Below, piece after piece: positions 16,663 through 50,492 of a stretch of 64,000 bases of DNA. Source of the DNA: an uncultured Bacteroidales bacterium. Lineage in GTDB: Bacteria; Bacteroidota; Bacteroidia; Bacteroidales; UBA10428. How positions within the stretch are numbered: position 1 is the first letter of the stretch; the number at the start of each line of letters is the position of its first letter. The stretch is taken from the NCBI GenBank assembly GCA_964615995.1, contig CAZTSR010000003.1, positions 64,327 to 128,326 of the forward strand, in the 5' to 3' direction. The translations under genes were made by a program, and so were the position numbers. The notes below the pieces were generated by a model, which saw only the letters and a list, made by a program, of their open reading frames with translations, ran no database searches and was not told where the DNA came from.

Positions 16663-17406
16663 TTACTGTTCCAGTGCTTTAAAATTCCATTTGGTAAAAT
16701 TCTTGCTGCTTTCCAGCCTGGCTTCCAGATCATCAGGAAGCGTTGGGAAAAAGTCAATTCCTGTTATTGTTTCAAGCTCATCGACTGAGATTGCAAAAGA
16801 CTTTGGGGCACCGGAAGCCACATTACTGCGCATGATGAAACCAATAGCACGCTCACCGGTGACATCAAGAATTACCTTATAGTAGCGTAACGGAATACTG
16901 ATTTTATTCTGTCCAAATGTACCAAATGGTGCATCTGTCAATACGGGGCCGGTTACTATATATAAAGTGTTTCCTTCGGCAGCCCATTCGCGGATCAGCA
17001 TTTCCATTTTTTTCCAGACATTTTTATTGAATACCGGTTTATGTGGAGCAGTATTGGAAGTTAAAAACGTTTCTTCCACAGCCTTTGGAGAAGTATACAT
17101 GTCTTCCGGGGGTACCAGTTGACCCATAATGAAACCTGCATCTTTATAATCCTTAACTGAAGGCGACCCGGTGGTGACAAGCGGATCTTCAGAATATTTC
17201 TCTTTGAAGGTGCCTGTTGCCCTTGCCTGTTCAGGAGTTAACTGATATGCTGCCCATGAGGGAAGCTCATATCCTTCATTGTATGAAAGTGTATACATCG
17301 TATGTTTTACCAGTTGCTCACGGTTTCCGACAGACGGTAGCTCGTATTGCTGTGCCAGTCCAGGTAAACAAATCGCTCCGGCGATCAAAAAGAAAAAAGG
17401 TTTCAT
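16663..17406 (-). CDS. DNA/RNA non-specific endonuclease-family protein with a degenerate active-site motif
   Basis: 247 aa with a signal peptide. Family-like blocks are YTLSYNE, TSNTAPH..FNKNVW and TGPVL. The expected DRGH catalytic block reads IMGQ. Confidence 0.75.
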   Translation of the reverse strand: MKPFFFLIAGAICLPGLAQQYELPSVGNREQLVKHTMYTLSYNEGYELPSWAAYQLTPEQARATGTFKEKYSEDPLVTTGSPSVKDYKDAGFIMGQLVPPEDMYTSPKAVEETFLTSNTAPHKPVFNKNVWKKMEMLIREWAAEGNTLYIVTGPVLTDAPFGTFGQNKISIPLRYYKVILDVTGERAIGFIMRSNVASGAPKSFAISVDELETITGIDFFPTLPDDLEARLESSKNFTKWNFKALEQ

Positions 17407-17467
17407 AAGCGTTTTTTTTGATAATTCTCTTACGAAAGCAAGCAGTTTTTTGTTCCCAACATTTTTA

Positions 17468-17537
17468 TTGGTTGATTTGTTGATTGGTTGATTTTCGAAG
17501 AATCTTCACGTCACTTGTCACTTGTCACCCGTCACTA
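17468..17537. repeat. octamer (TTGGTTGA-like x4) and heptamer (GTCACTT x4) tandem repeats
   Basis: Read directly from the sequence. It abuts and slightly overlaps the dnaE2-like stop region. Confidence 0.6.
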
Positions 17538-20477
17538 CTAATATCGTGGGTCTTTCCGGAATGGCAGTTTAGCCATTTTTTCCACCGTAATGCTTGGAAA
17601 TCCAAATTCTTCAGTCACTGTTCCCAGAATCAGATATACCCCGTAACCCCGAAATGGGTATTGCTTTAAGGAATTGGGAAAATTGACTGTGTCAAAGAAC
17701 GCGCCCTGAGTATCCAGGAAACATCCGAAATGCATCCATTCTCCCTTCACGGTGTGAACATATTTGATGGTCACCAGGTTGCCCAGCATCCGTACCTTTT
17801 TACCCACATGCTGCATCAGATCCGCAGAGGTAATGTGACCCCGGAAATGGGTTTCCAGCATATCAAAATGTGTCATGGATATCGGAAATCCAAGCAGTTC
17901 AATTTCGTCATAAGCATCTTCCAGAAGCGTTTGTTCGAGCTCGGGCAACCGGAATTCTTTGGGCTTTTCACAGAACAGGGCAGGCATTCCTGTATTGCTT
18001 TTACTGGCACCCATGAATACATGCGCATCCCATAGCAGTTCTTTTTTAGGTTTGCCGGTGAAACGAAAGGCATCCAGGCGAATGAGAATCACCAACTGCT
18101 CAATTCCGATGGGGATACGGCAGATGAAGTCCTCAAGGCTGAGAAATATGCCGTTATTCCGGCGTTCGGTAAGAATGCATTCTACTACCTGGCTTTCCAG
18201 GTTGGCAATATGAATGAATCCTATATATACGTCGGTCCCGTAAATACAGGTTTTGAGTGTGCTTTTGTTAACACATGGAAGGTGGATGCCGGCACCCGAT
18301 CGCTGTGCCTCGTTGAAATAAACCCAGGTATGATAGAATCCGCCAAAATTGTTGATGACGGCAACCATGAATTCCTGCGGATAGTAAGTTTTCAGATAGA
18401 GACTTTGATAGCTTTCCACGGCATACGATGCAGAATGTGCTTTTGAGAAGGCATATCCTGCAAAGGACGCTACCTGTCGCCACACTTCTGATGTAAGCGT
18501 TTGGGGATAACCACGCGCATCACAATTGTCAAAGAACCGCTGGCGGATCCGTTCGAATTCGCCTTTTGAGCGAAACTTCCCGGCCATTGCACGTCTCAGA
18601 ATATCGGCATCAGCCAGATCAAGATTGGCAAAATGATGACATACCTTAATGACATCCTCCTGGTATACCATTACCCCAAAAGTTTCTTTCAGTTGCTGCT
18701 CCATGACAGGATGCAGGTAGTTGATTTCGTGCGGATTATGAAACCGCTTGATGTATTCTTTCATCATACCTGATTTAGCAACACCAGGCCGGATTATGGA
18801 GCTGGCAGCAACAAGGGTAAGGTAATTGTCGCAGCGGAGCTTTTTAAGAAGTCCGCGCATGGCGGGACTCTCAATATAAAAGCAGCCGGTAGCTTCTCCG
18901 TCGTACAGGCGCTTGTTCACCTTTTCATCCTTTTTAAAATCGGCTACGCGGTGTACGTCAACCTTAACGCCCCGGTTACTGCGGATAATATCCACGCTTT
19001 CATTGATATGTCCGATGCCGCGCTGACTTAAAATGTCAAATTTTTCAAAACCTATGGCTTCAGCCACATACATATCGAACTGGGTGGTGGGGAATCCTTT
19101 TGGAGGAAGATCCAATGCCGTGTAACATGTAATGGGCTCTTCGGAGATCAACACGCCTCCGGCGTGGATGCTCCGGCTGTTGGGAAAGTCCATAAGCTGA
19201 TTTCCCATCTGGAAAATGTTTCCCGTTATTTCATCTGCATGTACAGTTGCCGGTTCGTCCACCAGTCTGTCGATTTCCTCTTTGGGCAGCCCATATACTT
19301 TTCCCAACTCGCGGAATATGGAACGATCCCGGAATGTTGTGATTGTGCCCAGTAAGGCCGTATGCTTACTGCCATAGCGTTTGAAAATATAATCCTGGAT
19401 CTCATCCCGGTCGCGCCAGGAAAAATCAATATCAAAATCGGGCGGGGAAGTCCTTTTGGGATTAATAAAGCGTTCGAAATACAGGTTCAGCTCAATGGGA
19501 TCCACATCGGTAATTTTCAGACAATATGCCACAATGCTGTTGGCACCGCTGCCACGGCCTACATGGTAAAAACCGCGACTCATCGAATACCGGATGATAT
19601 CCCAGGTAATCAGAAAATACGAAGAGAATCCCAGCTTGTCAATAATTTCAAGTTCATGCATGATTCTTTTCCTGGCTTCTTTATTATCTAATCCATAGCG
19701 ATATAGCATGCCATCGAGGGCCAGTTTTTCAAGCAGAAGTTTGTCGTCGTAACGGCTCGCTGTAAATATCTGTTTGTTCTTAACGGAATTAAAGTCCATC
19801 CGGATTTCGCATGCATCTATCAGTCGCTCAGTATTTCTAATTATCTGAGGATAATCAGAATATAAAATAGATATAAAATCCGGGAGTAAAAAAGACTCTT
19901 TTTGAGAAGCCAACTCCGTTGGTGTAATTTTACTTAAAAGCGTATTTTTTCCGATAGCGCGAAGATGACGGTGTAGTTCGAATTCTTCTTTGGAGGCAAA
20001 GGTAACCGGTAGCAGTGCGATCAGATCTTGCTCGTAATAACGGTATCTCGAACGAACCAGTTTATTAATCTCACCGGGCCTGATACCGATAAATTCATTG
20101 TCGCCAGGCTTCAAAGGAATGGGGTGATTAAAGGGATAAATGATGTAAACATCATCTAGCCGGGGGGCACAAACCGGGAGGGGAATTTTTTCGAGATTGT
20201 GCCGGGTAAGAAAGTCGTTTATCTCCCGGTATCCATTGTTGTTTCGGGCAATAGCGATGTATAATAGCTGGAATTGTTCGTCACGGAATTCGACTCCGGC
20301 TATGGGTTTTATATGAGCCTGTCTGCATTCCCTGATAAAGTCCATCATTCCCATGGTGTTATTGATATCTGTCATCGCCAGAGCATGCACGTCATTTTTT
20401 TGTGCTTCTGCCACCAGCTTTTCCACAGGCATGGTTCCGTATTGCAGGCTATAGTATGAATGGCAGTTGAGATACAT
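17538..20477 (-). CDS. dnaE2: error-prone DNA polymerase III alpha-subunit homologue (DnaE2/ImuC-like)
   Basis: 979 aa. PHP-domain N-terminus MYLNCHSYYSLQYGTM...LAMTDINN. Shorter than the replicative DnaE. Linked to a Y-family polymerase and a LexA-like repressor. Confidence 0.85.
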   Translation of the reverse strand: MYLNCHSYYSLQYGTMPVEKLVAEAQKNDVHALAMTDINNTMGMMDFIRECRQAHIKPIAGVEFRDEQFQLLYIAIARNNNGYREINDFLTRHNLEKIPLPVCAPRLDDVYIIYPFNHPIPLKPGDNEFIGIRPGEINKLVRSRYRYYEQDLIALLPVTFASKEEFELHRHLRAIGKNTLLSKITPTELASQKESFLLPDFISILYSDYPQIIRNTERLIDACEIRMDFNSVKNKQIFTASRYDDKLLLEKLALDGMLYRYGLDNKEARKRIMHELEIIDKLGFSSYFLITWDIIRYSMSRGFYHVGRGSGANSIVAYCLKITDVDPIELNLYFERFINPKRTSPPDFDIDFSWRDRDEIQDYIFKRYGSKHTALLGTITTFRDRSIFRELGKVYGLPKEEIDRLVDEPATVHADEITGNIFQMGNQLMDFPNSRSIHAGGVLISEEPITCYTALDLPPKGFPTTQFDMYVAEAIGFEKFDILSQRGIGHINESVDIIRSNRGVKVDVHRVADFKKDEKVNKRLYDGEATGCFYIESPAMRGLLKKLRCDNYLTLVAASSIIRPGVAKSGMMKEYIKRFHNPHEINYLHPVMEQQLKETFGVMVYQEDVIKVCHHFANLDLADADILRRAMAGKFRSKGEFERIRQRFFDNCDARGYPQTLTSEVWRQVASFAGYAFSKAHSASYAVESYQSLYLKTYYPQEFMVAVINNFGGFYHTWVYFNEAQRSGAGIHLPCVNKSTLKTCIYGTDVYIGFIHIANLESQVVECILTERRNNGIFLSLEDFICRIPIGIEQLVILIRLDAFRFTGKPKKELLWDAHVFMGASKSNTGMPALFCEKPKEFRLPELEQTLLEDAYDEIELLGFPISMTHFDMLETHFRGHITSADLMQHVGKKVRMLGNLVTIKYVHTVKGEWMHFGCFLDTQGAFFDTVNFPNSLKQYPFRGYGVYLILGTVTEEFGFPSITVEKMAKLPFRKDPRY

Positions 20478-20488
20478 GGGGGATAATT

Positions 20489-20755
20489 AACAATGAACAA
20501 TGAGTAATGAGTAATAGTATTGGATGCTGGATTTTAGATGCCAGATACTGGATAAACAGTATATTATTTAAGTGATGAAGTGATGAGGTGAAGAGGAGAA
20601 GAAGGCCAGAATAAGAAATTATGAATTATGAATTATGAAATATGAATTTAGGCCTTCCGCTTCATCACCTCTTCACTTCTTCACCTCATTACCTCATTAC
20701 TTCTTCACCTCATTACCTCATCACTTCTTCACCTCATTACCTCATCACTTCATGA
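20489..20755. repeat. mosaic of 7-nt and 8-nt tandem repeats forming a long imperfect hairpin
   Basis: AACAATG/AGTAATG x4 at 20489-20516. TGGATGC-like x5 at 20521-20555. AGTGATGA-like x4 at 20571-20605. AATTATG x5 at 20617-20651. CYTCWTYA octamer x12 at 20660-20755. Confidence 0.85.
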
Positions 20756-20955
20756 AAGCATTCCTTTTTATCTGCAAGATGTGTCCTTAAAGACCGGATC
20801 GGATTTTCCGTGATCAGATAATTTCGGTAGTTCTTACGCTCCATCATGGCATATGCCCAGAGCACTAATTCATCGTGGGGTGCAGAAATGAGTCCTCCGC
20901 TCATTTCTTGCTCAAACCAACCATCCTGGTTTAAAAAGAATAATCTCCTGTTCAT
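20737..20955 (-). CDS. hypothetical small protein (72 aa) at the head of the dnaE2-like unit
   Basis: The ORF lies directly downstream of the duplicated operator module. Its 3' end runs into the octamer repeats, so the C-terminus is uncertain. No recognisable motifs. Confidence 0.35.
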   Translation of the reverse strand: MNRRLFFLNQDGWFEQEMSGGLISAPHDELVLWAYAMMERKNYRNYLITENPIRSLRTHLADKKECFHEVMR

Positions 20956-20962
20956 AAAAAAA

Positions 20963-21003
20963 TGATTATATCATAATCAAAAACGCAGATTATAATATAA
21001 TCA
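20963..21003. promoter_or_regulatory. two-site palindromic operator module, copy 1 (GATTAT-ATC-ATAATC at 20964-20978; GATTAT-AAT-ATAATC at 20988-21002)
   Basis: Two perfect GATTAT-N3-ATAATC palindromes with starts 24 bp apart. The module is about 80% identical over about 48 bp to 23247-23288. Confidence 0.6.
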
Positions 21004-21045: not shown

Positions 21046-21906
21046 TTATTGGCCGGGCTGGATAGAACCTGTGCCAGTGATGTTTTTTACAAGATCCGGG
21101 TTGCCAAAATAGATGATATTGCCGGTTCCTGCCATTGAAGCACTAAGGCTTTCTGTTACAGTGGTTCTGATATCTCCGATTCCGGTAACTGAGCAGTTTG
21201 CTGTTTTTGCATTGAGATCTGTAAGATCAATACTGCCTGATCCGCCCAATTCAACATTCAGATTCTTTACCTGGCCATATGCATAGATATAACCAACTCC
21301 TTCCATATCTACATAAAGATCATCTGAAGTGACGGCGGACCGGAATACCATTTTGCCATTTCCGCTGAGCACGATTTCTGAAAGCTGGTCGACAGGGGAT
21401 TTCACATCAATATTTCCGGTACCGCTGAGTACGATCGAATAGAGTGGGTCAGGGGTGGTGATACGAATGGTTAACCGGCTGTTTTTGACGCAGGTGTTGG
21501 CATATCCGATAACCAGGCGCTGACCGTTCATAGAAAAAGAAACAAAGTCGGCCAGGTTCTCATAATCAGAAACGCTTACCTGATATTCCGTGCCACTTGA
21601 AATTTCAATATTGCCGATTTTATTTACCTCAAGTTCAGTAAAAGCGGATACAGGAACAACTTTGGTGATCACAGAACCTTTTCCCTGAACGACCGGTTTT
21701 CCGGTAGTGTAAATATTAAAAACAGCATTTCCGGCTTGTATGGTATCGGCCGCAATGGGATGGGCAATCACAGTTGGCTCCTCAGATTCCTTTTCACAGG
21801 ATGTTGCCAGAAAAAGAATCAGCAACAGGGACCACACCATTTGAACAACCAGTTTATAACAGTTCTTACGTTTCATTTTTTTCTTTTCTTTATTTGTAAC
21901 TATCAT
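21046..21906 (-). CDS. DUF2807 / head-GIN-domain (putative adhesin-like beta-helix) lipoprotein
   Basis: 286 aa. Lipobox LFLATSC. Repeated G(S/T)G(N/D)I segments (SGTGNIDV, SGNGKMVF, GGSGSIDL, TGIGDIRT, GTGNIIYFG). The start may instead be MKRKNCYK at 21876. Confidence 0.75.
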   Translation of the reverse strand: MIVTNKEKKKMKRKNCYKLVVQMVWSLLLILFLATSCEKESEEPTVIAHPIAADTIQAGNAVFNIYTTGKPVVQGKGSVITKVVPVSAFTELEVNKIGNIEISSGTEYQVSVSDYENLADFVSFSMNGQRLVIGYANTCVKNSRLTIRITTPDPLYSIVLSGTGNIDVKSPVDQLSEIVLSGNGKMVFRSAVTSDDLYVDMEGVGYIYAYGQVKNLNVELGGSGSIDLTDLNAKTANCSVTGIGDIRTTVTESLSASMAGTGNIIYFGNPDLVKNITGTGSIQPGQ

Positions 21907-22031: not shown

Positions 22032-23192
22032 TTATTGATTTATGTTAACGCGGGTAATGATATTTCGTCCGTATCTTTTTCGCATTTTATCAATTTCCTG
22101 ATACAGATGTACCATTTCCGGAGTGTCTTCAAAAAGATTGAGCTGTGGTGTTCCGCGAACAAGTTGACTGAGCTTAACACCAATGAGCCGGATCAGCATA
22201 CGACGCTGGTATAGTCGCTCAAAAAGCGACTTTGCAATAGCCAGTAATTTATGGTCGAAACATGTATAAGGAATACGCTGTTGCAAAGTATGGGTATCAA
22301 AATTGGAATATCTGATCTTTACGGTAATGCAAGAGGTCAGTTTCTCTTCTGTTCGCAACTCATAGGCGATTTTTTCCACCATTTTGACGAGTGTGTGATT
22401 TAGCAGGATCAGATCCGTAGTATCCGTATCAAAAGTACGTTCGGCGCTAATGGACTTTTGTTCCCAATAGGGAATCACGGGCGTACTGTCGATGCCATTG
22501 GCCTTTTTCCATATGTCAATGCCATTTTTCCCCAACACTTTTTCCATCATTTCGGGTGGAATCTGACCCAGTGTGCCAATAGTCGCCACCCCCATTGAAC
22601 GCAGTAGATGAAAGGTTTTCTCACCTATCATCGGAATTTTACTGATGGGAAGGGGATTTAAAAAAGGTTTTACAAATGGACCGGGCACCTCTTTTTCACC
22701 ATTGGGTTTTGCTTCGCCGGTGGCAATTTTTGAAACCGTTTTATTTATAGATAACCCCCATGATATAGGCAATCCGGTTTGTTTTATAATTTCCTTTCGT
22801 AATTCCTGTGCCCACTTCTGACATCCAAAAAAACGGTCCATTCCCGTCAGGTCAATATAGTGTTCATCAATGGATGCCTTTTCATACACCGGCGACCGCT
22901 CAGCAATGATATCCGTAACAATACCCGAATACTTGCTGTACAAATCCATATCACCCTTCACAACAATCGCATCACCACATAGTTGCCGGGCCATTTTCAT
23001 CGGCATCGCCGAATGCACTCCATATTTACGGGCTTCATAGCTGCAACTGGATACCACGCCGCGTCCCGATAAACTTCCTATTACAACCGGTTTATCTTTC
23101 AATTTTTTGTTAATCAGTCGCTCCACTGATACAAAAAAACTGTCCAGATCCAGATGGACAATGCTGCGTCCCATATTTTCGTTCTCCAACAT
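22032..23192 (-). CDS. dinB: DNA polymerase IV (Y-family)
   Basis: 386 aa. Contains IVHLDLDSFFVSVE and SIDEHYIDLTG, so the catalytic acidic residues are retained. The start may be MGRSIV at 23174. Confidence 0.9.
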   Translation of the reverse strand: MLENENMGRSIVHLDLDSFFVSVERLINKKLKDKPVVIGSLSGRGVVSSCSYEARKYGVHSAMPMKMARQLCGDAIVVKGDMDLYSKYSGIVTDIIAERSPVYEKASIDEHYIDLTGMDRFFGCQKWAQELRKEIIKQTGLPISWGLSINKTVSKIATGEAKPNGEKEVPGPFVKPFLNPLPISKIPMIGEKTFHLLRSMGVATIGTLGQIPPEMMEKVLGKNGIDIWKKANGIDSTPVIPYWEQKSISAERTFDTDTTDLILLNHTLVKMVEKIAYELRTEEKLTSCITVKIRYSNFDTHTLQQRIPYTCFDHKLLAIAKSLFERLYQRRMLIRLIGVKLSQLVRGTPQLNLFEDTPEMVHLYQEIDKMRKRYGRNIITRVNINQ

Positions 23193-23246
23193 ACTTCCTC
23201 ACTTTTACAATGGACATCTGTCTGAATTGTTAATAACTTTTAGATT

Positions 23247-23288
23247 TGATTATTTTATAATCAAAATACATGATGATAATATAATCAT
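23247..23288. promoter_or_regulatory. two-site palindromic operator module, copy 2 (GATTAT-TTT-ATAATC at 23248-23262; GATGAT-AAT-ATAATC at 23272-23286)
   Basis: Same architecture, spacing and orientation as copy 1. It lies in the divergent dinB / LexA-like intergenic region. Confidence 0.6.
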
Positions 23289-23295
23289 ATTTTAT

Positions 23296-23303
23296 TATAT
23301 TTG
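23296..23303 (+). promoter_or_regulatory. -7 box TATATTTG, candidate promoter of the LexA-like gene
   Basis: Exact TAnnTTTG match just downstream of operator copy 2. It would give a 5' UTR of about 210 nt that contains the heptamer mosaic. Confidence 0.35.
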
Positions 23304-23320: not shown

Positions 23321-23453
23321 GGTGACTGGTGACAGGTTACAAGTGACAAGAGATGAAGTAATTATGAATTATGAATTATGAATTATGAATGGGATTACAG
23401 TATTACTCATTACTCATTACTCATTATTCTACCTCGTCACTTGTCACTCTGCG
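23321..23453. repeat. 19 consecutive phase-coherent heptamers (GGTGACW, AGTGACA, TATGAAT x4, ACTCATT x3, CTTGTCA)
   Basis: Read directly from the sequence. A single 7-nt register is kept across about 133 nt although the motif changes. The outer GTGACAAG / CTTGTCAC units are inverted. Confidence 0.85.
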
Positions 23454-23518: not shown

Positions 23519-24322
23519 ATGTTTTTTTCCTCCAATATCAAACTGCTCCGTAAGCGCAAAGGCCGCACTCAGGATGATGTGGCATTTGCTCTCGGAATGA
23601 AACGCTCCACATTGAGCGGATATGAAAATGAGGTGAGCTTACCTACGGTACAAGCCCTGATCGCATTTTCAAAGTATTATGGCATTGCCATTGACACACT
23701 GGTGAAAATCGACCTCCGCAATCTTTCGGAAAGCCAGTTTTCACAGCTTGAAAGAGGTGGTGATGTTTATCTCAAAGGCAGCAACCTGCGTGTGATGGCT
23801 ACTACAGTAAACAGTAACAATGAAGAAAACATCGAACTGGTATCAGAGAAAGCTAAAGCAGGATATGCAACAGGCTTTGCTGATCCCGAGTTTATTAAAG
23901 AACTTCCGGTTTTTCAACTGCCTTTTCTTTCCAGACAAAAAAAATACCGGACTTTTCAGCTAAACGGCGATTCCATGCTTCCTATACCTGATGGCTCTTA
24001 TGTGACAGGGGAATTTGTACAGGACTGGAACAGCATTATCAGTGGGCATGGCTATATTGTGCTGACCCTGGATGAGGGAATCGTTTTTAAAATTGCTGAA
24101 AACCTGCTCAAGGAAGGACAAAAACTCAGGTTGTTTTCGTTAAATCCCATTTATGAACCATTCGAAGTACACGCAGGAGAAATCAAAGAAATCTGGAAGT
24201 TTGTAAACTATATCAGTTCCGAAATTCCTGATCCCATGATTCCTCCGGATGAACTGATCCGTACGGTTGCCGGACTTAAAAAAGATCTGAACGTTCTCAA
24301 AAGCAGGATGGGCAAGTTATAA
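23519..24322 (+). CDS. XRE-family HTH / S24 peptidase LexA-like repressor
   Basis: 267 aa. N-terminal HTH LRKRKGRTQDDVAFALGMKRSTLSGYENE. Possible Ala-Gly cleavage site KAKAGYA. C-terminal S24 motif LNGDSMLP. Divergent from dinB. Confidence 0.85.
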   Translation: MFFSSNIKLLRKRKGRTQDDVAFALGMKRSTLSGYENEVSLPTVQALIAFSKYYGIAIDTLVKIDLRNLSESQFSQLERGGDVYLKGSNLRVMATTVNSNNEENIELVSEKAKAGYATGFADPEFIKELPVFQLPFLSRQKKYRTFQLNGDSMLPIPDGSYVTGEFVQDWNSIISGHGYIVLTLDEGIVFKIAENLLKEGQKLRLFSLNPIYEPFEVHAGEIKEIWKFVNYISSEIPDPMIPPDELIRTVAGLKKDLNVLKSRMGKL

Positions 24323-49783: not shown

Positions 49784-49835
49784 GTGACAAGGGACGAGGG
49801 ACGAGGGACGAGTGGGTATCACTCGTCCTTTTTTT
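49784..49835 (+). terminator. heptamer repeats (GTGACAA, GGGACGA x3) merging into terminator hairpin GGACGAGTG-GGTAT-CACTCGTCC + T7
   Basis: Read directly from the sequence. The hairpin is at 49806-49828 and the T-run at 49829-49835, immediately after the esterase stop. Confidence 0.7.
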
Positions 49836-50492
49836 ATTTATATAATTTGAAAAGGACGCCGCTGCAGATAAATTGCTCTTTTCTTGTCACTTTTTGTCGC
49901 CACAAAAAGTAACCAAAAAAGGCATACGGCCAGAACGCACTCCGTCTCGTGCCTCGACTTCGTTTGATCGGCTGGCCGTCGGATATGGTATTTTTTATTT
50001 TGCTCCGCACACGCTGTAGCCAGGTTGCTACATTCAGTAACACTTTGCAACAAAGGCAATACATACCCCGGAGCGGTTAAGGTATTGTAGCTCATGTCGT
50101 GTATACAAACATCTTTCCCCGGAGGGGATAGGGTATAAAATTCGGATTCTTCTATTACATTATTTTTGCGGAGTGACAAGTGACAAGTGACAAGCGGGCA
50201 GAGGGAGTGGAGTGTGTTGTAGCTCATCCTTAGTTATTTATATTATGTGAAGAAGCAATAGAAATTTCGTGTACGTTGGCAAAAATCAAAGCACCGTGCG
50301 GTGGCCGTGACAAAACGCGGAGCTGGTGTGGCTGTGAATGACGGAAGGCATGGAATTTCTTGTAAAGAGCCTTGGTATCATCAGAATTGGATGGAAAAAT
50401 TTCTATTAATTATTACCTGAATGTACTTTATCAGGTATTGAATCAACAAATCACTGTTGTCCGGAGAAAATTTGTAAGATTTCTTAAAGATC

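Follow-up and report, generated by a model that had tools for sequence, protein, structure and literature searches.

Here we describe a probable paired operator module that precedes both units of an error-prone DNA polymerase gene cluster in a 64-kb stretch of DNA from an uncultured Bacteroidales bacterium (hereafter the window, meaning the whole stretch that was analysed). The module consists of two palindromic GATTA-N5-TAATC sites and occurs twice in the window: copy 2 lies in the divergent region between dinB and the gene of a 267-amino-acid (aa) repressor of the 'non-canonical LexA' type, and copy 1 lies in front of a 72-aa open reading frame (ORF72) that is followed by a dnaE2-like gene. 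We found the module conserved upstream of the repressor gene across most of the Bacteroidales species compared, where it is usually overlapped by a promoter box. From these sequence relationships we consider it likely that each module is occupied by two repressor dimers, which silence the polymerase units as well as the promoter of the repressor gene itself, and that RecA-stimulated self-cleavage at A114-G115 relieves this block.

The probable operator module in the window and in orthologous loci

Copy 1 is formed by site 1 (20964..20978, GATTATATCATAATC), which adjoins ORF72 at 8 bp from its ATG, and by the gene-distal site 2 (20988..21002, GATTATAATATAATC). Copy 2 is formed by site 3, or site A, on the dinB side (23248..23262, GATTATTTTATAATC) and site 4, or site B, on the repressor side (23272..23286, GATGATAATATAATC). 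No strand is assigned to any of them; sites 1 to 3 match GATTAT-N3-ATAATC exactly and site 4 with one mismatch. Direct reading of the sequence recovered all four palindromes of the original prediction at these coordinates, together with the features it had ascribed to them: a start-to-start offset of 24 bp that is identical in both pairs, common flanks (T before the first site, AAAA after the first site and AT after the second) and the same polarity, as in both pairs the AATAT-centred site stands at the greater distance from the minus-strand gene. This centre of site 2 is also that of the repressor-proximal site in copy 2 and in most orthologues, and the GATGAT variant of site 4 recurs in several orthologous loci (L001, L002, L005, L007 and L009-L012, from the set described below). 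The sites of copy 2 lie 55 bp from the dinB start codon. That a module stands before both polymerase units holds as well, with two details that had been omitted: a DUF2807 gene lies between dinB and copy 1, and copy 1 is separated from the start of the dnaE2-like gene by about 490 bp.

At up to one mismatch, GATTAT-N3-ATAATC has exactly four matches in the 64 kb, all of them the sites named above, whereas shuffled sequences gave a mean of 0.34 matches and reached four in 0 of 100 shuffles. When three mismatches are allowed the count is at background (77 matches compared to 65 expected), and thus the motif is not a common AT-rich word; a widespread occurrence, which had been put forward as an outcome that would speak against regulation, was not observed in the window. 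There are only two modules, that is, site pairs, within the window. A search of the window for extra regulon members returned two one-mismatch matches to the core (34845 and 52538), which is chance level, one at a gene end and one intragenic.

To place the module in evolutionary context, we fetched 80 species-level genome loci (L001-L080) with repressor orthologues at 68-96% identity and searched the 900 bp that precede the repressor gene for two GATTA-N5-TAATC sites. The module is found there in 68 of the 80 Bacteroidales species, compared to 0.025 expected from shuffled upstream DNA, and its spacing is fixed, with 23 bp in 43 modules and 24 bp in 25. Counted by region, the 63 kb upstream of the repressor genes contain 67 modules; the other 745 kb contain 11, of which 7 stand directly before ORF72 homologues. 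Over the 68 modules the GATTA/TAATC core holds about 2 bits per position while the flanks and spacer mostly hold about 1 bit or less, except for the bases abutting the core; these values are inflated by choosing sites through a motif match, and the module count is the independent statistic. The palindromes of the proposed form GATTAT-N3-ATAATC are therefore real, but its sixth (T) and tenth (A) positions vary among orthologues, and we prefer GATTA-N5-TAATC for that reason. Most of the 80 loci have dinB next to dnaE2 or in one operon with it, and the repressor gene is divergent from this operon with a single module between them.

ORF72 is limited to the sub-lineage of the window (L001-L012, L015 and L107), where it is placed between dinB and dnaE2. 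Modules precede it in L001, L002, L009, L010, L011, L015 and L107. Where the gap between dinB and ORF72 spans 159-2860 bp (window, L001, L002 and L009-L011), the start of ORF72 has the second module at a distance of about 8-10 bp, in the same polarity, and where the gap is 43-95 bp (L003, L004, L007 and L008) it is absent; in L012, with a gap of 216 bp, it is degenerate. The second module tracks the splitting of the operon, and we therefore read copy 1 as an operator by which the ORF72-dnaE2 unit, once detached, is again brought under control.

Promoters of Bacteroidetes have a consensus of TTG near −33 and TAnnTTTG near −7. In 52 of the 68 modules the first G of site A is also the last base of an exact TAnnTTTG box, and 50 of these 52 have a TTG 16-24 nt upstream as well; in most lineages, repressor transcription would therefore start inside the operator, with the ATG 9-11 nt past the second site. 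In the window this distance from operator to repressor ATG is stretched to 232 nt by tandem repeats, and two exact candidate −7 boxes for the repressor gene are present on the plus strand: TATATTTG (23296..23303), 9 bp after site 4, and TAGATTTG (23241..23248), which ends on the first G of site 3 and for which a correctly spaced TTG is absent. Beyond site B, at a distance of 8-9 bp, the window and 12 of its 12 closest module-bearing relatives (L001-L005 and L007-L013) have a −7 box with at most one mismatch, which reads TATATTTG, TATATTTA or TATATTAG. The repressor −7 box thus shifts its place between sub-lineages while the operator pair is kept, and the window has both boxes in exact form. 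A scan for sigma-70 promoters and terminators stayed at chance level, with a consensus that is not appropriate for Bacteroidetes. The window sequence was found in bioreactor DNA metagenomes; the one RNA run contained 5% of the sampled words and gave no usable transcript data.

These patterns bear on whether the palindromes are regulatory at all. They could be AT-rich, TATAAT-like promoter elements or copies of a dispersed repeat, as TATAAT-like hexamers do occur within the sites and the genome is rich in short intergenic repeats, some of them in these same spacers. However, only two pairs are present in 64 kb, their spacing is fixed, the most conserved positions are the outer G/C and the symmetric ATTA/TAAT rather than a −10 hexamer, and the sigma-70-type matches do not exceed chance. 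We consider a non-regulatory origin highly improbable.

Beyond these loci, we searched public metagenome contigs for exact occurrences of the site pair, which at least 120 contigs contain. Among the matches listed (120 contigs), 64 have a homologue of the repressor, dinB, dnaE2 or ORF72 beside the module, 45 are accounted for by two classes of unrelated repeats, an GATTAATC microsatellite and a long hairpin element, and 11 are of other kinds, several of them at contig ends. The only non-polymerase target among the matches listed, one of these 11, is a gene for an SOS response-associated peptidase (SRAP; L089:2049-2896, PF02586 7.3e-35), whose start is 1 bp from the module. The circuit that is visible with paired sites is thus small and centred on polymerases.

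The scan and the orthologous loci also returned several side observations. A 38-bp perfect hairpin, GATTATTCACTAATCTGCTAGCAGATTAGTGAATAATC, is present in 24 contigs from a few sample series (L084, L088, L095, L100, L105, L106, L108, L113-L116 and others). It matches the pattern by accident and probably represents a palindromic element dispersed in the genome of another organism. A distant lineage of 405-aa DinB proteins (57-59% identity) has a module about 80-110 bp upstream and no adjacent repressor gene (L120:3030-3068, L153:874-1514, L161:10456-10494, L170:6968-7006 and L197:657-694); L120 and L170 have a LemA-family neighbour gene, and L153 has two modules in tandem. L032 contains a second, diverged repressor copy (L032:84-3045, 38% identity), apparently disrupted by stop codons, to which a separate GATTA-N5-TAATC pair belongs (901-938); pieces of dinB are found next to the intact locus, which together suggests a decayed duplication of the whole unit. 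In L152 a small ORF is inserted between module and repressor gene (L152:211-624), with a likeness to a four-helix bundle as judged by eye, and near the end of contig L110 a similar ORF (L110:376-738) is found at about 100 bp from a module, on one side of it. The insertion in L152 is a further case of a spacer that accepts insertions while the operator is kept.

The repressor, its predicted action and rival readings

The repressor gene (23519..24322, plus strand) encodes 267 aa with an XRE-type helix-turn-helix (HTH) and an S24 peptidase domain (PF00717, 4.4e-08). The former corresponds to PF01381 (HTH_3, 2.8e-13) at residues 7-60, and five confident helices are modelled within residues 3-63. 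Searches against Pfam and NCBIfam gave neither a match to the winged helix of LexA (PF01726, LexA_DNA_bind) nor one to a LexA model of NCBIfam, and some relatives are named 'LexA family transcriptional regulator' at NCBI. The closest relatives are from uncultured Bacteroidales. A search of the Protein Data Bank (PDB) with the repressor sequence gave weak matches to XRE domains only (such as HipB and CylR2), and we therefore take the protein to have no solved relative. Residues A114-G115, S152 and K191, in the contexts KAKAG, GDSM and VFK, are invariant in 30 of 30 orthologues aligned, and they line up with those of validated 'non-canonical LexA' proteins and of lambda CI in the published alignment (PMC8565304). 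Compared over their C-terminal parts, the repressor shares 47% identity with WP_025606010.1 of Pontibacter actiniarum (162 aa, E 6e-51) and 32% with WP_075324850.1 of S. agarivorans (E 3e-23), both validated members (the P. actiniarum protein by electrophoretic mobility shift assay, EMSA).

The Bacteroidetes 'non-canonical LexA' proteins are S24 peptidases with a CI-type HTH_XRE (PMC8565304; Sánchez-Osuna et al., NAR 2021). Members bind GGA-N5-TCC or CTAA-N5-TTAG at their own promoters and before dinB, umuDC, recA, imuA-imuB-dnaE2, SRAP and other genes, with results from EMSA and from induction by mitomycin C; the study also lists many more candidate dyads with a 4-N5-4 geometry, and tandem sites 19-23 bp apart are common (PMC8565304, Table S5). 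By its sequence, the 267-aa protein belongs to this family: it has the HTH_XRE, the S24 domain with Ala-Gly and Ser/Lys, the relatedness to validated members, a dyad-N5-dyad at its own promoter and the same motif before error-prone polymerase and SOS genes. The locus falls outside both described motif groups because neither CTAA-N5-TTAG nor GGA-N5-TCC is found in its two intergenic regions. It also differs from canonical LexA, as the protein has no winged helix and a search for the canonical CTGT-N8-ACAG box found none. The CI-like HTH and the non-CTGT box, which the original prediction had set down as an oddity, are real but not puzzling: they already define the family that contains the 267-aa protein, so that the interpretation was right yet less novel than it seemed.

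The earlier view of a self-cleaving XRE-HTH/S24 repressor over an SOS-type mutagenesis unit is thus supported by the presence of the module in the orthologous species, its overlap with the −7 box, the gene association and the invariant residues. The identity of the binding protein, its cooperativity, the silencing of the leftward genes and the trigger by RecA are all parts of a mechanism that we infer. In it, one dimer would occupy each GATTA-N5-TAATC site, and two dimers on sites 23-24 bp apart would probably help each other's binding. Copy 2, in the divergent region, would shut off the repressor promoter (autoregulation) and dinB, and copy 1 would exert the same control over ORF72, the dnaE2-like polymerase and perhaps an endonuclease gene, after the ORF72-dnaE2 unit had been parted from dinB by inserted DNA in the lineage of the window. 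Upon DNA damage, RecA filaments on single-stranded DNA would stimulate cleavage between Ala114 and Gly115 by Ser152/Lys191, the cleaved repressor would leave the DNA and the error-prone polymerases would be made.

Several results weigh against parts of this mechanism. No recA, uvr or ruv gene lies next to a module among the matches listed from the metagenome scan, and 'SOS regulon' may overstate a polymerase-only circuit because no recA, uvr or other classic SOS gene was among the genes observed beside it. Published motifs (CTAA-N5-TTAG, GGA-N5-TCC and TTAC-N5-GTAA) have no match in either intergenic region, and CTAA-N5-TTAG has zero matches across the entire window, so that the operator specificity is one we infer rather than one that is inherited. 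For dinB and ORF72 we found no exact leftward −7 box in the window, where the copies in the spacers have two mismatches; a leftward one-mismatch box in the spacer recurs, weakly, in 29 of 63 orthologues. Because these leftward promoters could not be placed, repression of dinB and ORF72 is deduced from proximity. Finally, in the AlphaFold model of the repressor, built with 30 close orthologues, the HTH is confident and the S24 C-terminal domain has a predicted local distance difference test (pLDDT) score below 50.

Two of these results, the small regulon of polymerases, SRAP gene and repressor with no recA or uvr beside the module among the matches listed, and the low-confidence model of the S24 domain, would also fit a circuit in which the operators do belong to the adjacent XRE/S24 protein and the trigger is another signal, a partner protease or anti-repressor, or a different cleavage route. 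We consider this unlikely, as the Ala-Gly, Ser and Lys residues are invariant in the 30 orthologues and aligned with validated members and lambda CI, and validated members of the family are induced by mitomycin C (PMC8565304).

It is less likely still that the palindromes are bound by another transcription factor and that the XRE/S24 protein is a mere neighbour. The modules at dinB-like genes with no adjacent repressor gene (L120, L153, L161, L170 and L197) would agree with this, but in these genomes the repressor gene may lie elsewhere; the module is at the repressor's own promoter in 68 of the 80 species, overlapping the −7 box, and a dyad-N5-dyad is the shape that validated relatives bind.

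We also weighed whether the locus is a prophage immunity region, with the XRE/S24 protein as the CI of the prophage and the palindromes as phage operators unrelated to the host polymerases. The best PHROG match of the repressor is a phage 'transcriptional repressor' (phrog_4, 9.2e-17), the module recurs in viral contigs (see below) and its spacing is that of the lambda OR operators. However, the locus is flanked by sucD, msrA and a 417-aa gene with no assigned function, and by no phage genes, and the arrangement of repressor, dinB and dnaE2 is kept in dozens of species-level genomes, which would not be expected of a prophage. Gene context and cross-species synteny led us to reject this explanation, which we hold to be the least probable of all. 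RecA-relieved repression by the non-canonical LexA protein is the reading that we consider likely.

Genes of the polymerase units and modules in phage contigs

On the minus strand, dinB (22032..23192) encodes DNA polymerase IV, by its motifs an active Y-family polymerase (IMS 1.3e-47, IMS_C 1e-24), and scores 273.9 bits against NF002677, whose cut-off is 256. Its catalytic motifs HLDLDSFF and SIDEHY (DxD, DE) are retained, and we therefore regard the protein as DinB-like rather than ImuB-like; no imuA is present at the locus, which is thus not an ImuA-ImuB-DnaE2 cassette. Between dinB and copy 1 lies the DUF2807 gene (21046..21906, minus strand; adhesin head GIN domain, PF10988 7.3e-34), a lineage-specific insertion that, apart from the window, only L001, the closest relative, has at this place. 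The other relatives with a split operon have different or no recognizable insertions.

ORF72 (20737..20955, minus strand) is the first gene after copy 1 and has 77 homologous protein clusters. Its product has a conserved core of 52 aa (MNKRLFFL..DGWFE...ELVLWAYAMMERKNYRNYLITENP) with 11 invariant residues, followed by a variable tail, and is modelled with a beta-beta-alpha-beta fold at a mean pLDDT of 79.7. It has no match in Pfam, NCBIfam or PHROGs, and Foldseek against the PDB returned nothing at E ≤ 0.001. Judged by this conservation, the 72-aa ORF is a genuine conserved small gene, and since its place is between the two polymerase genes and behind the same predicted operator, its product may act as an accessory factor of the polymerases or as an effector induced by damage.

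The dnaE2-like gene (17538..20477, minus strand) encodes a C-family polymerase of 979 aa with DNA_pol3_alpha, finger, HHH_6 and PHP domains. The protein passes the superfamily model TIGR00594 only and scores 477 bits against NF004225 ('error-prone DNA polymerase'), for which the cut-off is 939; because this cut-off is failed, the 'DnaE2' label rests on context and length. Downstream, after a gap of 131 bp filled with repeats, follows a gene for a DNA/RNA non-specific endonuclease (16663..17406, minus strand; PF01223 4.5e-35), which is syntenic in L003, L007, L008, L009 and L012 and may possibly be co-transcribed with dnaE2 as part of the damage-induced unit.

Short tandem repeats dominated by heptamers fill the intergenic DNA of the window (20617-20648, 23360-23390, 20662-20751, 23402-23426, 17467-17536, 49786-49812 and 50172-50194). 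A unit AATTATG is present twice in about 4.5 copies, in the gap between ORF72 and dnaE2 and in the repressor leader, and a 24-nt repeat overlaps the 3' end of ORF72.

The module was also found in 12 viral contigs. One phage family of six contigs has it, with the 23 bp spacing, 2 bp from the start of a gene for an 83-aa membrane protein (L205:6814-6851, L207:7262-7299, L209:2799-2836, L210:1571-1608, L211:639-676 and L090:2010-2047, the last from the metagenome scan). A 68-aa gene follows the 83-aa gene in this family, and on the opposite side two genes, one small and SSB-like and one of 66 aa, are convergent with them. Other phages have the module between head-protease and portal genes or before the portal gene (L202:999-1036, L203:2136-2173, L204:10633-10671 and L208:1857-1895). 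No repressor homologue was found in the stretches of phage contigs examined. We also considered a 16-nt flank, ATTGTTAATAACTTTT, common to the window and phage L210, and set it aside as possibly due to chance, as this one match is short and AT-rich, and sister phages show two differences in it.

Canonical LexA is known to keep genes of some phages of Proteobacteria and Firmicutes silent. By analogy, phages of these Bacteroidales may have taken over the SOS operator module of the host, whose non-canonical LexA would then silence phage genes until DNA damage. We regard this as rather unlikely, because by a rough estimate the viral collection as a whole should contain about 1-3 module matches by chance, and the case is persuasive for one phage family only. 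If true, the module would be a portable damage-sensing cassette common to host mutagenesis genes and phages.

Relation to known systems

A system of this kind was already described in 2021, and our core finding is confirmatory rather than surprising. What is new is the half-site, (G)ATTA instead of CTAA; the host, an environmental lineage of uncultured Bacteroidales from bioreactors, sediments and soils that carries a phage-type DNA-damage repressor system; the small regulon centred on polymerases; and the second operator module wherever the operon is split before the conserved 72-aa gene. A possible use of the same operator by phages is also indicated. In practical terms, the operator word GATTA-N5-TAATC, in pairs 23-24 bp apart, can be used for annotating these genomes. 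The locus also offers a view of how a circuit may be kept up in evolution, as inserted DNA splits the polymerase operon and an entire two-site operator is present again before the detached part. The conserved 72-aa gene, under the same predicted control, is maybe an unrecognized partner of error-prone polymerases or a damage-induced effector.

Both ortholog groups of PMC8565304 are absent from the order Bacteroidales among the complete genomes analysed there, a contrast that should not be over-read because the label of a metagenome-assembled genome may follow a broader taxonomy that includes Marinilabiliales-like lineages. The closest likeness is to the P. actiniarum CTAA-N5-TTAG group of that study, with which the system shares an HTH_XRE and S24 architecture, the C-terminal similarity at 47% identity, the KA-x-AG cleavage motif, a palindromic dyad-N5-dyad at its own promoter and before error-prone polymerases, and tandem sites about two helical turns apart. 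Unlike that group, its half-site is (G)ATTA rather than CTAA when aligned at the centre, so that 2 of 4 dyad positions are changed, and a conserved G/C is added on the outside; the sites are 23-24 bp apart as opposed to 19-23, the regulon, as far as it was seen, comprises the polymerase unit, the SRAP gene and the repressor, and the hosts are environmental Bacteroidales. Elizabethkingia anophelis WP_078407279.1 (PMC8565304) offers another diverged dyad of the family, TTAC-N5-GTAA, with the same geometry, at a gene that is likewise divergent from an error-prone polymerase gene, both being induced there by mitomycin C. Its dyad sequence differs and is a single site 15 bp from the start codon, whereas the pair is obligatory here and the module duplicated.

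With lambda CI the repressor shares the CI-type HTH and the self-cleaving S24 domain. The lambda operators OR1-OR2-OR3 are 17-bp sites with 6- and 7-bp spacers, and hence have centres 23 and 24 bp apart (PMC1920246), which are both of the spacings found here and make pairwise cooperativity an attractive idea by analogy. In contrast to lambda, the protein described here would be a chromosomal regulator of polymerases, and its sites are 15 bp long with no third site and no cro-like partner. Canonical LexA acting on imuA-imuB-dnaE2 is alike in that an S24 self-cleaving repressor controls a cassette of Y- and C-family polymerases and its own gene, as predicted here, and unlike in that the present repressor has an HTH_XRE rather than a winged helix, there is no CTGT-N8-ACAG and no imuA, and the Y-family protein is DinB-like.

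A putative DnaE2B-PolY-RecA mutasome, with an association of DnaE2B and PolY in Bacteroidetes, has been put forward more recently (PMC12926913, NAR 2026). As in the parts of that paper on which we draw, a gene for an active PolY is linked here to a DnaE2-type gene with neither imuA nor imuB. Those parts deal with protein associations and make no mention of operators or regulation, whereas the locus described here adds a conserved 72-aa gene between both polymerase genes in one sub-lineage.

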